Shown: positions 41,630 to 48,908 of the stretch, one piece after another
Layout of the letters: the number at the start of each line of letters is the position of its first letter
Position numbering within the stretch: the first letter of the stretch is position 1
Source: an archaeon
GTDB lineage: Archaea; Iainarchaeota; Iainarchaeia; Iainarchaeales; JAAZKV01
DNA length: 64,000 nucleotides
Assembly (NCBI GenBank): GCA_041659525.1
Contig: JBAZYC010000001.1
Coordinates: forward strand, 653,731-717,730
Direction: 5' to 3'
Notes under the pieces: model-generated
Databases searched by the model: none
Told to the model about the DNA's origin: nothing
Seen by the model: the letters and a program-made list of their open reading frames with translations, nothing else
Position numbers and translations under genes: made by a program

Positions 41630-41941
41630 TCATTTCATAGACTTTTTCTTATAGCTTGTCGTAATTAGTTGTTTTATTTCTGGGACTATTGTTTGTTGAA
41701 GGTTTTCCGACTCAACGATTTTTACTAGCCATCCTTCTGTTTTGATGGTTCCTGTTTGGGTGAGGTCAGAAATTGTTTGATCTAATTGTTTTTCATTATA
41801 ATTTGTTAAGCAGAGTAATTCGTGTTTGGAATAATACTTTTTGTCATAAAGGAGCCAGAATAAGAGTTTTTGGTGTACTTGTCCAAAATTTGGGTGTTCT
41901 TGAGCTTTTTTGAAATAAGCATTATCGAGTACTGTCATCAT
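41630..41941 (-). CDS. Small hypothetical protein, possible winged-helix regulator
   Basis: 103 aa. HELLCLTNYNEKQLDQTISDLTQTGTIK is an HTH-like segment. Its start codon directly abuts the stop of the upstream 55-aa ORF (TAAATG). Confidence 0.45.
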   Translation of the reverse strand: MMTVLDNAYFKKAQEHPNFGQVHQKLLFWLLYDKKYYSKHELLCLTNYNEKQLDQTISDLTQTGTIKTEGWLVKIVESENLQQTIVPEIKQLITTSYKKKSMK

Positions 41942-42109
41942 TTAAGGCTCACCAATAATTATGCTTTCTAAAGGAATTGATGGTTTTTTGAAAAAGAGTT
42001 GCTTTGTTTGTGTTTTGTGTTCAACGAGTAAAAAGTTTTCCGAGGCTAAGTTTGAAATTATTTCTTGGACTTGAGAAAAATCCTCGTAACCAATAATTCT
42101 CTCTTCCAT
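41942..42109 (-). CDS. Unannotated 55-aa ORF translationally coupled to 41630..41941
   Basis: MEERIIGYEDFSQVQEIISNLASENFLLVEHKTQTKQLFFKKPSIPLESIIIGEP. Below the track cutoff. The stop TAA is immediately followed by the next gene's ATG. Confidence 0.4.
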   Translation of the reverse strand: MEERIIGYEDFSQVQEIISNLASENFLLVEHKTQTKQLFFKKPSIPLESIIIGEP

Positions 42110-42153
42110 GCTAACATAGCTGCTAGAGGGATTAATATTAATGAAGTAGAAAT

Positions 42154-42175
42154 TAAATCAACTAAAAAGTTGATT
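42154..42175. promoter_or_regulatory. Palindromic operator-like site AAATCAAC-TAAAAA-GTTGATTT (copy 1)
   Basis: Perfect 8-bp inverted arms with a 6-nt spacer. Lies in the divergent intergenic region between the 55-aa ORF (42109) and the Nudix gene (42233). The 20-nt string ATCAACTAAAAAGTTGATTT (42156-42175) recurs at 44070-44089. Confidence 0.6.
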
Positions 42176-42232
42176 TTTCTTAGCAATAAGTTTTTCTTAA
42201 CTAATTTTGTAACATTGTTAAGGTGTTAGTAA

Positions 42233-42622
42233 ATGAAGCATGTTGATTCAGTAATTTTGTTTGTTTTTAATAAAAATAAAGATAAGGTTTTGATGATTGA
42301 ACGAGTAAAGAATCACTTTGGCTTTGATTGGGGCTTTGTGTGTGGAAAATTTGAAGAGGGGGAAACGGCAGACGAGTGTGCAGTAAGAGAGCTTTATGAA
42401 GAATTGGGGCTCAAAGGGCTTGTTTTAAAAAAATTTAAACAAGTAAAACACAAAAAAGATAATGAAACTTATTATCATTATTATTATGTCACTACAATTT
42501 CTGAATCTGCTCAAAAAATTAATTTCAAAAAAGACGAGATTAAGAGTGTTGTTTGGTTCAAACTTAATGAATTACCTAAAAGTAGGGCTCCTGATGATCC
42601 ATTTGAGGCAATTTCAAAATAA
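42233..42622 (+). CDS. Nudix hydrolase (A)
   Basis: Complete Nudix box GKFEEGETADECAVRELYEELGL. AAGGTG SD. Confidence 0.85.
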   Translation: MKHVDSVILFVFNKNKDKVLMIERVKNHFGFDWGFVCGKFEEGETADECAVRELYEELGLKGLVLKKFKQVKHKKDNETYYHYYYVTTISESAQKINFKKDEIKSVVWFKLNELPKSRAPDDPFEAISK

Positions 42623-42625
42623 GTC

Positions 42626-42913
42626 TTACTCTAAAATTATTCTTTTCTCAAAAGCCCCATTCTTCAAATTCTTTTTCTTTCTTAACTCGTTAATTTCTTC
42701 TTCAGTTGCCCCATATTCTTTTGCTAATGTAAGAGCAACTTCAATTAAATCAGCGATTTCTTCAATATTCCTATCTTCTTTCACTTCTTTTAGCTCTTCT
42801 TCAAGCTTAGCTATTAGGGCTTCTTCAAACTCTTTCTTATTAGCAATATGTGTTTTTGCGGTGTCCCCTTTACTTTGAATTATGTTTGGAATATTGTCTC
42901 GAACTAGTTTCAT
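42626..42913 (-). CDS. MazG-like all-alpha nucleoside triphosphate pyrophosphohydrolase
   Basis: MKLVRDNIPNII start and an EELKEVKED...EEIADLIEV acidic metal-binding helix pair. 95 aa. Confidence 0.7.
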   Translation of the reverse strand: MKLVRDNIPNIIQSKGDTAKTHIANKKEFEEALIAKLEEELKEVKEDRNIEEIADLIEVALTLAKEYGATEEEINELRKKKNLKNGAFEKRIILE

Positions 42914-42965
42914 ACAAATTACCTTTAAAGTAAGTGCTGTGAGATATATTATTCTGTCTTTTAAT

Positions 42966-43532
42966 TTATTTTTTTGTTTTTAATTGCCTTTTTAACATTA
43001 GCTCTGGTTTTCCTGCATTGAGCTCTTTACTTGTTTTTATGTTTAATGATTTAATGAAATCGTTTATTTTTTTCTTTACAATTAAGGGGTTTTTGGTTGT
43101 TTCTTTTGATTCAATTTCTAAAAACACTCCCAAACCTTTTACCTCTTCTAAAACTATTTCAAACTCTTTTGTTTCAAAAGTGTGTTTGGTATTATTCAAT
43201 TCGACTAGTTTTGTGTAACCTAATAAGCTGATTATTTTGTTAGTAGTTTCGAATTCTTTTATTTCAGTCTCATATTCATCTGAATAAACCCAAACTCCTT
43301 TTTTGTCAAATCTATCTATTTTGTATGCTAAAAAGTATTTGCCTTGTTTTGATCTTATTCTAAAACACTCCTTTGGAAAAGAGTTTCCTTTTGGTTTAAG
43401 TTTTTCGTTTTGTTCGTGAAAATAGTAAATGTCTTTAGTGTGCTTTACGATTTCCTTTGATGTTTTTGAAAGTTTCTTTAAGGCAATTTCCTTATCTTCA
43501 AATAACTCCACTAATACTTCTATTTCTTTCAT
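42966..43532 (-). CDS. CYTH-domain protein (CyaB / triphosphate tunnel metalloenzyme family)
   Basis: N-terminal KEIEVLVE strand and C-terminal EEVKGLGVFLEIE, typical of class IV cyclase/ThTPase-type CYTH proteins. Confidence 0.7.
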   Translation of the reverse strand: MKEIEVLVELFEDKEIALKKLSKTSKEIVKHTKDIYYFHEQNEKLKPKGNSFPKECFRIRSKQGKYFLAYKIDRFDKKGVWVYSDEYETEIKEFETTNKIISLLGYTKLVELNNTKHTFETKEFEIVLEEVKGLGVFLEIESKETTKNPLIVKKKINDFIKSLNIKTSKELNAGKPELMLKRQLKTKK

Positions 43533-44002
43533 TTTTTCATCTTCAAAAATTTTTCAATAGCTTCACTTGTTTCTTTGAAGGTGAATGTTTTTTTAGTTGT
43601 TTGGATGGGGGTAAAAAATATTTCGCTTATTTCACTGGTTTTTGGTTTTAAATCACTTGGAGAACCCAAATATTCTACAAAAAAGAGGGTTGTTTTTTGG
43701 CTTGAGTATTTTGCGTTTTCTTTTTTTGGAAAATCAAAATTAATGCCAAAAGGCAATTTTTTTAGTACCCTAATCTTGTTTGTTCCCAATTCTTCATTTA
43801 TTTCTCTCCAAATGGCCTGCTCAGGAGTTTCACCGAGTTTGATTCCTCCTTTAGGAATATCTATTTCTTCAATTTTTTCGTTTTCCAAAATATCTTCTCG
43901 CATTACTTTTTTTACAGCGACAATTTGATTAGGTTTCCCTTTACAAACAATAATTGCTCCAACAGCATTTCTAATTGGTAACTGATTTTCGATTGATTCC
44001 AT
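43529..44002 (-). CDS. Nudix hydrolase (B)
   Basis: Nudix box GGIKLGETPEQAIWREINEELG. 4-nt overlap with the CYTH gene start. Confidence 0.85.
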   Translation of the reverse strand: MESIENQLPIRNAVGAIIVCKGKPNQIVAVKKVMREDILENEKIEEIDIPKGGIKLGETPEQAIWREINEELGTNKIRVLKKLPFGINFDFPKKENAKYSSQKTTLFFVEYLGSPSDLKPKTSEISEIFFTPIQTTKKTFTFKETSEAIEKFLKMKK

Positions 44003-44058
44003 TCTTACAGCCTCTTTGAAAATACTAAATACAGAGTTTTCACGTTATTATAGGTTAA

Positions 44059-44089
44059 GTTGATTTTTTATCAACTAAAAAGTTGATTT
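44059..44089. promoter_or_regulatory. Palindromic operator-like site (copy 2, with an extra half-site): GTTGAT-TTTTT-ATCAAC-TAAAAA-GTTGATTT
   Basis: Contains the same 20-nt core ATCAACTAAAAAGTTGATTT as 42156..42175. Lies just upstream of a TATAATAA box for the Nudix B-CYTH-MazG operon. Confidence 0.6.
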
Positions 44090-44092
44090 ATT

Positions 44093-44557
44093 TTAATATT
44101 TTTTTATTAGTAGTTCTGTAACTTTTTCTTTGTCATAAGTTATTTTAGCAGTGAATATTCCTTTTTTGTTTAATAATGGTAGGAAATAGTAGTCTCCTTT
44201 CCACATGTTAAGTTTTTTTAGATTTTTGTTTTCTATCCATTCCAAGTCTCCTTCATTGCATTCAATTAGTTTTCCAGAAAACTTTTTTGATATGAATACA
44301 AAAACCATTGTGTATTCACCGTTATTTGTTTGGGGGTAAGTTATTATTCCTTTGAGAATTGGTTCTATTTGTAGTCCTGTTTCTTCAAGTGATTCTCTTT
44401 TTACTGCTTCTTCTGGGCTTTCGTTATGTTCTATTTTTCCTCCGACACCATTCCATTTTCCTTTATGGATATCGTTTTCTTTTTTTGTACGATGAAGCAT
44501 TAAGGTTTTTCCATTTTTTTGAATATAACACAAAACAGTCATTTTTATAGGAGTCAT
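44093..44557 (-). CDS. Nudix hydrolase (C), MutT-like
   Basis: Nudix box GGKIEHNESPEEAVKRESLEETGL. Confidence 0.85.
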   Translation of the reverse strand: MTPIKMTVLCYIQKNGKTLMLHRTKKENDIHKGKWNGVGGKIEHNESPEEAVKRESLEETGLQIEPILKGIITYPQTNNGEYTMVFVFISKKFSGKLIECNEGDLEWIENKNLKKLNMWKGDYYFLPLLNKKGIFTAKITYDKEKVTELLIKKY

Positions 44558-47246: not shown

Positions 47247-48908
47247 ATGGTTTCTAGTCGTAAAAGGGTTCTTGTTACTAGTGCGTTGCCTTATGTGAAT
47301 AATATTCCTCATTTGGGGAATTTGGTTGGTTCTGTTCTTGGGGCTGATGCTTTTTCTAGGTTTAAACGTTTAGAAGGTAATGAGGTTTTGTTTGTTCTTG
47401 GTACTGATGAGCATGGTACTACTGCTGAAGCTAAGGCGATTGAAGAGGGTTTGACTCCTAGACAGTTAGTAGATAAGTATTTTTTGATTCACAAGAGTGT
47501 TTATGAGTGGTTTAACGCGAGTGCGAATTGCTTAGGTAGATCTTCTTCAAAAGAGAATGCAGAAATTACTAAACACATTTTTTTAGCACTTTACAAGAAT
47601 GGATATTTGAAAGAAAAAATTATTACTCAGCTTTATTCAGAAAAATCGAAAAAGTTTTTGAGTGATAGGTTTGTTGAAGGAGAGTGTCCTTTGTGTCACG
47701 CAAAGGGAGCAAGAGGGGATCAGTGTGATTCTTGCGGGAATTTACTTGACCCAATGGACTTGATTAATCCCATTAGTAAGATTGATGGATCTAAACCTGT
47801 TCCTAAAGAAACTAAGCACTTGTTTATTGATTTACCAAAACTAGAACCTGAATTAAAAAAGTGGATTGATTCTAAGAGAACTACTTGGACTCCGCTTGCA
47901 CTAAATATTACTGATCAGTGGTTAAAACAAGGATTGAGAGAGAGATGTATTACTCGTGACCTTGAGTGGGGAATTCCTGTTCCGCTTGATGGTTGGGAAG
48001 GAAAAGTTATTTACAGTTGGTTTGATGCTCCAATAGCTTATATTGGAATTACAATGGAGTGTAAAGAAAAGAGTTGGGAGAGTTGGTGGAGAGCGGATGA
48101 TATTACTTTGTATCAATTCATGGGTAAAGATAATGTTCCTTTCCATTCTATTTTGTTTCCAAGTTTTTTAATTGGAACAAAAGAAAAGTGGCACTTAGTA
48201 GATTACTTGGATTCAACTGCTTATCTAAATTATGAGGACAAAAAATTCTCAAAGAGTAAAGGGACTGGCGTGTTTGGAGATGACGCAGTTAATTCAGGAA
48301 TTGCTAGCGATATTTGGAGATATTATTTATTTAGAATTCGTCCGCAAGCAACTGACTCTGTTTTTGAGTGGAGTGATTTCTTTGGAAAAGTAAATACTGA
48401 GCTTGTTGGTAACTTTGGTAATTTTGTTAACAGAGTAATTTCTTTGAACGAAAAATTGTTTGATTCAGTTAAACAAGAATCTAGTTCAACTAAATTAATT
48501 GACCAAGTAAAACCATTAGTTGAAGAGTACAAAGAGTTAATGAATAAGCTTCACTTAAGAGAGGCTTTAATGAAAGCTAATGAAATTAGTTCAGTTGGAA
48601 ACAAATACTTGCAAACAGAAGAACCTTGGATTAAAGCTAAGACTGATAAAATTGCTGCAGCTAGTGTAATTTCTGAGTGCATTGATTTAGCAAAAGTTTT
48701 AGCAGTTCTATATTATCCTTTTACTCCTAATGCTTCTGAAAAAATATTTGTAATGCTTGGAGAAAACAAAACTATTCTTGATGTTGGATTTGAGAATTGC
48801 TTTAACCAAATTCCTACTGGAACAAAGATTTCAAAAGGAGAGATTTTGTTTAAGAAACTTGAAGAAAAAGAAATTGCTGAGCTAAAAAAGAAGTTTTCAA
48901 AAGAATAA
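47247..48908 (+). CDS. metG: Methionyl-tRNA synthetase
   Basis: ALPYVNNIPHLGNLVG (HIGH region), CPLCH...CDSCG zinc knuckle, KFSKSKG (KMSKS). Confidence 0.95.
   Translation: MVSSRKRVLVTSALPYVNNIPHLGNLVGSVLGADAFSRFKRLEGNEVLFVLGTDEHGTTAEAKAIEEGLTPRQLVDKYFLIHKSVYEWFNASANCLGRSSSKENAEITKHIFLALYKNGYLKEKIITQLYSEKSKKFLSDRFVEGECPLCHAKGARGDQCDSCGNLLDPMDLINPISKIDGSKPVPKETKHLFIDLPKLEPELKKWIDSKRTTWTPLALNITDQWLKQGLRERCITRDLEWGIPVPLDGWEGKVIYSWFDAPIAYIGITMECKEKSWESWWRADDITLYQFMGKDNVPFHSILFPSFLIGTKEKWHLVDYLDSTAYLNYEDKKFSKSKGTGVFGDDAVNSGIASDIWRYYLFRIRPQATDSVFEWSDFFGKVNTELVGNFGNFVNRVISLNEKLFDSVKQESSSTKLIDQVKPLVEEYKELMNKLHLREALMKANEISSVGNKYLQTEEPWIKAKTDKIAAASVISECIDLAKVLAVLYYPFTPNASEKIFVMLGENKTILDVGFENCFNQIPTGTKISKGEILFKKLEEKEIAELKKKFSKE

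Follow-up and report, generated by a model that had tools for sequence, protein, structure and literature searches.

The analysed window, a 64,000-nt stretch of contig JBAZYC010000001.1 from an archaeon of the order Iainarchaeales, contains two identical copies of a 20-nt palindromic element (dyad). One copy lies upstream of a gene pair encoding 55-aa and 103-aa proteins (hereafter S55 and R103), and the other lies upstream of an operon encoding a Nudix protein (Nudix B), a CYTH protein, and a MazG-like protein. Comparison with the rest of the genome and with related genomes indicates that the dyad is no bare palindrome but forms the upstream portion of a composite, directional archaeal promoter module. 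We consider it likely that this module serves a winged-helix regulator at two leftward promoters, with R103 as the best candidate for the protein that binds it.

The 20-mer ATCAACTAAAAAGTTGATTT was found at 42157-42176 (copy 1) and 44070-44089 (copy 2) of the window, and the genome contained no other exact match; the next-best match had three mismatches. The first-pass annotation of this DNA had noticed the identical 20-mer at both places, which stands, but had set copy 1 1 nt too low, at 42156-42175. Likewise, the perfect 8+6+8 palindrome AAATCAAC-N6-GTTGATTT around copy 1 exists as it described, and lies at 42155-42176 instead of 42154-42175. The core ATCAAC-N6-GTTGAT occupies 42157-42174 in copy 1 and 44070-44087 in copy 2. 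When the assembly (1,061,623 bases in 3 contigs, 32% G+C, ca. 89% complete) was scanned for this core, as the annotation had proposed, the motif was not scattered: it occurred at these two places only, both intergenic. A fuzzy search allowing up to three mismatches and an nhmmer search with the full module added none, leaving additional weaker sites in this genome unsupported. In 100 shuffles of the window, the mean number of dyads with at most one mismatch was 0.24, and no shuffle reached two. The shuffles, the genome scan, and the order-wide control described below exclude a chance origin of the repeated dyad.

When the flanks of all dyads from this genome and its relatives were aligned, further conserved parts appeared downstream on exactly one side, and on both sides in a few cases. 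The resulting layout is ATCAAC-N6-GTTGAT-N5-[A/T]TC[A/T]AC-N6-8-TATA(ATATTAAT)-~21 nt-start. Relative to the predicted starts, the dyad is at ca. -65 to -48 and the third half-site at ca. -42 to -37, followed by a purine-rich stretch resembling the B recognition element (BRE) and by the TATA element at ca. -29 to -22. The third half-site is usually followed by C, the next ca. 5 nt are purine-rich (CRAAGG-like) at the BRE position, and the TATA element after them is TATATTAAT or TATATAAG, with the start codon or a leader ca. 21 nt later. The consensus of 34 unique modules was aaAAATCAAC-tattTg-GTTGATTt-.ttt-TCaACC-.aa..-tATATTAaT. In relatives, the spacer of the dyad follows Y-W4-R, which often gives the 18-bp palindrome ATCAACCAATTGGTTGAT. 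A TATA-like hexamer begins 4-8 nt past the third half-site in 62 of 65 unique modules (6-8 nt in 61). By mechanical calling of open reading frames (ORFs) in the relatives, an ORF of at least 45 aa starts within 400 nt in the module direction in 64 of the 65; 31 of these start within 40 nt of the module, suggesting leaderless mRNAs.

The three-half-site pattern gave 85 exact matches in 49 of 196 genomes of the order, representing 23 of 73 genera, and the reversed pattern gave none in the same 196 genomes. No match was obtained in 19 genomes of other orders of the phylum. Degenerate copies, such as those in G003 and G012 (G, C, and L numbers are our handles for genomes, contigs, and loci), are missed by an exact pattern, so these counts underestimate the spread of the module. 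A hidden Markov model (HMM) of the module, run on the present genome with nhmmer, matched only C1:695907-695829 (copy 1, E = 1.5e-12) and C1:697819-697755 (copy 2, E = 2.8e-7), both on the minus strand. As far as sequence comparison can tell, conservation of the element across this order of small archaea is solidly supported.

The palindrome might alternatively form a hairpin at which transcripts of the co-directional gene upstream, at copy 2 a third Nudix gene, Nudix C, are terminated or processed. Copy 2 begins 3 nt past the Nudix C stop codon, and in relatives many dyads closely follow the 3' end of a gene. The folding energies of the hairpins are -6.6 to -8.4 kcal/mol (z-scores -2.3 to -4.8), and the minus-strand loop has a T5 run. 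We regard this explanation as very improbable, because it is the sequence of the half-sites, invariant across ca. 17 families, and not their pairing that is conserved: the one-mismatch variants TTCAAC, GTTGAA, GTTGAG, and GTTGAC are uncompensated, and no compensatory changes were seen. Moreover, many dyads lie between divergent genes, where there is nothing to terminate (L034, L044, and L045), and a third half-site and TATA element at fixed distance would be meaningless for a terminator. Archaeal termination requires oligo-T and not a hairpin. An Rfam search of the modules of relatives found no RNA family.

The small-subunit ribosomal RNA (rRNA) of this genome fits the archaeal model over its full length (1324 bits), and the small genome appears to be DPANN-like. 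Since the organism is an archaeon, reasoning with bacterial -10 and -35 boxes does not apply. A sigma-70 reading, with GTTGAT as -35 and TATAAT as -10, was dropped in view of the archaeal rRNA, of homologues that come from metagenome-assembled genomes named archaeon at NCBI, and of the generic TATA at -30. Across 867 upstream regions, the generic promoters of this genome show a peak of TTTAAA at -30 from the start codons, which suggests that many mRNAs of this archaeon are leaderless; a Shine-Dalgarno signal at -15 to -8 is the alternative to this TTTAAA. For GGTG, GAGG, or AGGT, ca. 280 matches were counted over the 867 regions, with the maximum in the bins from -15 to -6. The sequence [A/T]TC[A/T]ACC is rare among them (6 of 867). 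The third half-site and TATA element of the module thus differ from the generic promoter consensus, and the module is specific and no general promoter feature.

Copy 1 lies between S55 (start at 42109, minus strand) and Nudix A (start at 42233, plus strand). On the minus strand, its dyad (42155..42176) is followed 5 nt on by the third half-site TTCTAC (42146..42151), at an offset conserved in the 34 unique modules, and then by the TATA box of the S55/R103 promoter, ATATTAAT (42131..42138), which occurs as such or as a one-base variant at the same position in 14 loci. S55 (41942..42109) and R103 (41630..41941) follow on the same strand, and neither belongs to a Pfam or NCBIfam family. Because the TATA box begins 29 nt before the S55 ATG and the generic leaderless TATA is at ca. 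-30, the S55-R103 mRNA is predicted to be leaderless, and copy 1 probably drives the gene pair from this mRNA. The Shine-Dalgarno sequence of R103, GGTGAG (41948-41953), is located inside the 3' end of S55, 6-7 nt before the R103 start ATGATG, and it also encodes the conserved C-terminal Gly-Glu of S55. This arrangement suggests translational coupling of R103 to S55.

The linkage of the module with the gene pair is conserved in the family of the window. The distance from the dyad end to the S55 start codon in 14 loci was 47 nt in 12 and 47-49 nt overall; counted over the 13 aligned relatives, it was 47 nt in 11 and 48-49 nt in two. The check in related genomes that the first-pass annotation had called for thus found the dyad kept at a fixed distance from the 55-aa gene. 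Between dyad and S55, the blocks TTCTACC and ATATTAAT were conserved in the 14 loci. S55 was detected in 15 fetched loci (hmmsearch, 2.1e-18 to 1.1e-30), and R103 homologues were present in 33 of 37 genomes of the family; outside it, one marginal match (E = 0.003) and otherwise none was found among 61 relatives. The dyad lies ca. 220-240 nt upstream of an R103 homologue in a dozen of the searched relatives. In the 20 fetched loci, S55 and R103 were adjacent without exception, and the module stood alongside in 15 family loci. The four family genomes without R103 were also without the three-half-site module.

Two loci depart from this arrangement: in G003:C18 (L047, 6367-6384) and G012:C51 (L048, 5246-5263), a second module with the TTCAAC variant directly follows the R103 stop codon, and the module in front of S55 is degenerate. 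The next genes, driven by the second module, encode a TyrRS/TrpRS-type synthetase in one locus and a 1250-aa protein in the other. Across genera, a gene for a protein of 545-601 aa, at the position of methionyl-tRNA synthetase (MetRS), adjoins the S55/R103 module, often divergently (L034, L036, L038, L040, L043, L044, L047, and L049); Pfam confirms MetRS in L034 and L047. The gene at this position in the window is 47247-48908; here, insertion of a glycosyltransferase/radical-SAM/peptide cassette and of Nudix C separates it from the S55/R103 module.

Copy 2 (44070..44089, minus strand) lies between the stop codon of Nudix C (44093-44557, minus strand; Pfam Nudix) at 44093 and the start of Nudix B at 44002. 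The extra GTTGAT that had been noticed 5 nt from copy 2 is present at 44059-44064; read on the minus strand it is ATCAAC, the third half-site 5 nt past the dyad. The TATA-like box of the operon, TATAATAA, is also where it had been seen, at 44045-44052 on the minus strand, with the dyad 17 nt upstream. Measured between centres, the dyad is 29-30 nt from the TATA box at both window copies. A start predicted near 44022 leaves a 20-nt leader with a GAGG Shine-Dalgarno sequence before the Nudix B ATG (44002). By this layout, copy 2 is the element predicted to drive Nudix B-CYTH-MazG leftward. Nudix B (43529..44002; PF00293, 2e-13) is the first gene of the operon and overlaps the CYTH gene (42966..43532, minus strand; PF01928, 1.4e-12) by 4 nt. 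The CYTH protein scored 74.4 bits against TIGR00318, the NCBIfam equivalog for class IV adenylate cyclase CyaB, above the cut-off of 57.95, and on this score the operon may make or destroy a nucleotide signal and not serve pool cleaning alone. The gene for the 95-aa MazG-like protein (42626..42913, minus strand; PF12643, weak, 1e-3) begins after a 52-nt gap and is probably the last gene of the operon; homologues 56-74% identical to it occur near modules in relatives.

The first-pass annotation had placed copy 1 in a divergent promoter region between the 55-aa/103-aa pair and Nudix A (42233..42622, plus strand; PF00293, 6e-23), whose start is 58 nt from the dyad. The dyad does lie between them, and it does join the gene pair with the Nudix B-CYTH-MazG operon as a promoter element, but a symmetric operator shared with Nudix A is not supported: the third half-site, the TATA element, and the HMM match are on the minus strand only, and no downstream part of the module faces Nudix A. 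On the plus strand, the sequence beside either copy contains neither third half-site nor TATA at the spacing of the module. Control of Nudix A by the dyad is possible. Nudix A is conserved as a neighbour; in G028 and G030, its orthologues are upstream of the dyad and co-directional with it. Three of the 10 Nudix genes in this 1.06-Mb genome are at this island.

The two copies form a direct repeat around four of the five hydrolase genes, and the identical 20-mers could also be recombination or insertion repeats, that is, att-like or cassette ends of the 1.9-kb segment Nudix A-MazG-CYTH-Nudix B, or copies of a mobile promoter cassette. The genes behind the module differ widely between genomes, an integrase gene follows it in one distant locus (L078), and modules of G041 at contig ends are a sign of repeats. 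Yet no integrase or transposase is among the genes in or beside the island, and the identity of the two copies ends at 20 nt, the flanks being unrelated save for the module consensus. The S55 copy is ancestral, syntenic with MetRS across genera, and modules are single-copy in most relatives without any bracketing. An origin of the repeats by recombination or insertion is therefore highly unlikely in our view.

Returning to the promoter module, we propose that a dimeric winged-helix regulator would bind the dyad as the high-affinity site and that a further subunit or dimer would occupy the third half-site, which abuts the BRE. The regulator would thereby control the recruitment of TFB and TBP. 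The rigid spacing and the non-consensus TATA fit such recruitment by a bound regulator. Exactly two such promoters would operate in this genome, both leftward, one for S55/R103, which would amount to autoregulation, and one for Nudix B-CYTH(CyaB-like)-MazG. The site is upstream of BRE/TATA (ca. -65 to -37), which in archaea is an activator position and not that of a classical repressor operator. TrmBL1 activates from sites upstream of BRE/TATA and represses from sites downstream of it (PMC4706686), and the same position rule has been proposed for the single-domain TrmB-like protein OxsR (PMC9426492). Since the site is always upstream of BRE/TATA at rigid spacing, activation appears somewhat likelier than repression, and our analysis leans slightly towards it. 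Repression, in which cooperative filling of the third half-site would block the BRE, is given a little less than even weight.

The fold of R103 is that of a winged helix-turn-helix (HTH) protein. Its AlphaFold2 (AF2) model, built like that of S55 from a shallow alignment (7 and 5 sequences), has a winged HTH with an extra N-terminal and C-terminal helix (mean predicted local distance difference test [pLDDT] score 77, core ca. 85). The topology is H1-b1-H2-H3-b2-b3, with helices at residues 21-33, 39-46, and 50-63 and the wing at 66-75. In Foldseek, the top matches were TrmBL2 and MarR, with probability 1.0 but E of ca. 3e-3 and template-modelling (TM) scores of 0.5-0.6; the small archaeal winged-HTH proteins AbfR2 (6cmv, TM 0.63), ST1889 (2d1h), and 1r7j also matched. 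The AF2 model and Foldseek thus bear out the HTH-like character that the first-pass annotation had ascribed to the adjacent 103-aa protein. The PADLOC model WH_III-A matched R103 at 3e-4, and a search of the PDB sequences returned nothing below E = 0.5. The R103 family is tiny, with 22 representatives among 1.8 billion proteins. Alignment of the R103 family with the TrmB-like family by hhalign gave a probability of 83% (E = 9e-6, 53 columns) against 0.28 for the reversed control, an earlier test with shallow profiles having been negative. The two families align at the winged helix and have in common a P-x-F-S-x-x-H motif before helix 1; on these alignments, R103 may be read as a minimal, distant relative of the TrmB-like regulator.

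The AF2 model of S55 is a beta-alpha-beta-beta mini-domain (mean pLDDT 84), and a fold search against PDB gave no match better than E = 0.23. Because S55 is acidic and has no structural relative, we take it as a partner or modulator of R103, which is more likely than a role as DNA binder. Similarity judged by eye had suggested a split gene, with S55 homologous to the C-terminal domain of the TrmB-like protein; this idea was rejected, the hhalign E value of 0.14 being no better than that of the reversed control. Beside dyads of distant families, R103 homologues were sought and appeared at sub-threshold level only (E 0.6-2), and this candidate was likewise not retained. The dyad-adjacent ORFs in those families are often of 93-113 aa with winged-helix-like sequence patterns, and the sub-threshold matches fall on such ORFs (L050, L068, and L070).

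Several observations weigh against R103 as the binder. R103 matches no Pfam (E ≤ 0.1) or NCBIfam model and so falls short of the PF01978 gathering score, and its putative recognition helix is rather acidic, unlike that of the TrmB-like protein whose gene carries the module in relatives. The module is found in many families without a detectable R103 homologue, so that another protein must bind it there. This genome has three other, distant TrmB-family ORFs as possible alternative binders, and, since the assembly is ca. 89% complete, an unlinked TrmB-like orthologue could be missing from it. In addition, the rigid spacing may be due in part to the promoter having been inherited or copied as one unit, and not to stereospecific contact.

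The module could accordingly be genuine and yet be read by an unlinked factor, either another TrmB-family protein or the missing TrmB-like orthologue, with S55/R103 merely a target. The gene for a TrmB-like protein of 170-186 aa (PF01978) is itself preceded by the module in G016, G017, G031, G013, G048, G165 (two copies), and G037; it is preceded by a variant module in G010, a one-mismatch variant in G040 (dyad and module match), and a one-mismatch dyad in G058. Outside the family of the window, the presence of the module tracks this TrmB-like protein and not R103. Within the family the picture differs: ca. 27 of the 37 genomes are without a TrmB-like gene, and many of these keep a well-conserved module before S55/R103; the four genomes without R103 also have no three-half-site module. 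No orthologue of the module-carrying TrmB-like regulator was found in the present genome, and none of its other TrmB-family ORFs has the module upstream. An unlinked reader is the main rival explanation but rather unlikely, and R103 is modestly favoured as the reader of the module in the family of the window.

Of the 15 fetched family loci, 8 have Nudix genes no further than ca. 1.1 kb from the S55 module, several of these genes inside the same operon. Examples in the operon are a gene for a 248-aa protein with a Pfam Nudix domain and a MazG-like C-terminal part in G016 (tblastn), a Nudix B-like gene in G002, and a Nudix gene in G031. Other module-driven genes encode radical-SAM/SPASM enzymes, an Orn/Lys decarboxylase, peptidase U32 (twice), a VTC (CYTH-like) protein, a DsbA-like protein, an integrase, and large secreted proteins. 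The bias of the targets towards nucleotide metabolism is visible in the family of the window and is not exclusive.

Some individual loci are also described here. In L035 (G016:C1, 11548-13653), a 701-aa radical-SAM/HMG-CoA-reductase fusion is encoded directly downstream of a module, divergent from a Nudix gene. In L043 (G030:C7, 3534-6855), the module drives a gene for a 418-aa fusion of a thymidylate-synthase-like (ThyA-like) protein and a SAM methyltransferase, then genes for two proteins without a Pfam match; a MazG-like gene, overlapped by the third of these ORFs as called, follows on the same strand 1.7 kb on, and a Nudix gene is just upstream. L043 may be a nucleotide-modification operon. 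The integrase gene, of the tyrosine-recombinase (phage integrase) family, is 51 nt behind the module in L078 (G118:C9, 1581-2318). Several modules of distant families are followed by no ORF for hundreds of nt (L051:7378-7395 and L094:3972-4000, both on the minus strand, L064, L066, L069, and L077/L098). Similar GC-rich, hairpin-prone sequence, e.g., CAGGCG...GCCTGCTCCGG, follows these modules and could represent unannotated small RNAs or long leaders; an Rfam search downstream of them found an unrelated tRNA only. Three near-identical modules of G041 (C19:37-54, C40:2-19, and C153:61-78; L071-L073) are within 80 nt of contig ends, which suggests that the module, together with what follows it, is repetitive enough in that genome to break the assembly.

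Taken at its widest, the module might belong to a lineage-specific global regulon that is undescribed in the literature we searched, with a portable cassette, two autoregulated readers, and feedback by a nucleotide signal; we put this forward tentatively and think it rather unlikely. A promoter cassette of ca. 70 nt would then stand before Nudix/CYTH/MazG/VTC, radical-SAM, U32, integrase, and secreted-protein genes, and possibly before unannotated RNAs. One reader would be a TrmB-like sensor of full length; the alternative, in one family, would be the minimal two-gene version S55 plus R103. The signal to which these regulators respond might be a nucleotide that the enzymes under their control, the CyaB-like CYTH, Nudix, and MazG proteins, produce or degrade. 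If true, this would close a feedback loop acting either on a nucleotide second messenger or on pool sanitation.

Almost nothing is known of gene regulation in uncultured small-genome archaea. The element described here is a delimited cis-element with a clear consensus, a fixed promoter geometry, one or two candidate regulators, and a two-promoter regulon in a 1-Mb genome, and the DNA-protein pair is amenable to in vitro tests with synthetic DNA and recombinant protein. It ties a cluster of nucleotide-polyphosphate hydrolases (Nudix, CyaB-like CYTH, and MazG) to a putative dedicated regulator, which hints at regulated control of a nucleotide pool or signal.

Our literature search for ATCAAC/GTTGAT hexamers or palindromic TrmB sites in DPANN found nothing relevant. 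The kind of element, a palindrome for a winged-helix factor upstream of BRE/TATA, is well known, and the advance is a new instance and no new principle. In activation of the TFB-RF1 (PF1088) type (PMC5937170), the site is directly upstream of a weak BRE in a non-consensus core promoter and suggests TFB recruitment, as here; TFB-RF1 differs in belonging to an unrelated protein family, and the mechanism proposed for the present module is read from position. Lrs14/AbfR and Sso10a-type regulators, which are dimeric DNA binders, resemble R103 in having ca. 100 aa with a winged helix and a C-terminal helix, and they are among its top fold matches. However, they are proteins of Sulfolobales with no detectable sequence relationship to R103 and with low specificity or no strict dyad. 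OxsR of Haloferax volcanii is likewise nearly a single winged-helix domain and activates with its motif 5' of BRE/TATA, at -50 to -74 in hvo_1043 (PMC9426492). In contrast to the present system, its own motif is a CG-rich semipalindrome (CGGnCGnGCG), and it is a thiol-based redox sensor that matches PF01978, whereas the Pfam model does not recognise R103, whose gene would be transcribed together with that of its 55-aa partner.

There is also a likeness to the TGM (Thermococcales glycolytic motif, TATCAC-N5-GTGATA) of TrmBL1/Tgr, likewise a hexamer dyad with a short AT-rich spacer beside BRE/TATA; it is bound by a TrmB-type winged-helix dimer, and its placement relative to BRE/TATA determines the effect (PMC4706686). 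In the relatives, a TrmB-family gene carries the present module. The two differ in half-site (ATCAAC vs TATCAC) and in spacer (6 vs 5 nt). The present module also has an obligatory third half-site 5 nt downstream and is always upstream of the TATA element at rigid spacing. It occurs at 1-5 sites per genome, compared with ca. 70 for TGM, in a lineage of small-genome archaea, and its local candidate regulator, R103, is a 103-aa domain-only protein without a sugar-binding domain.

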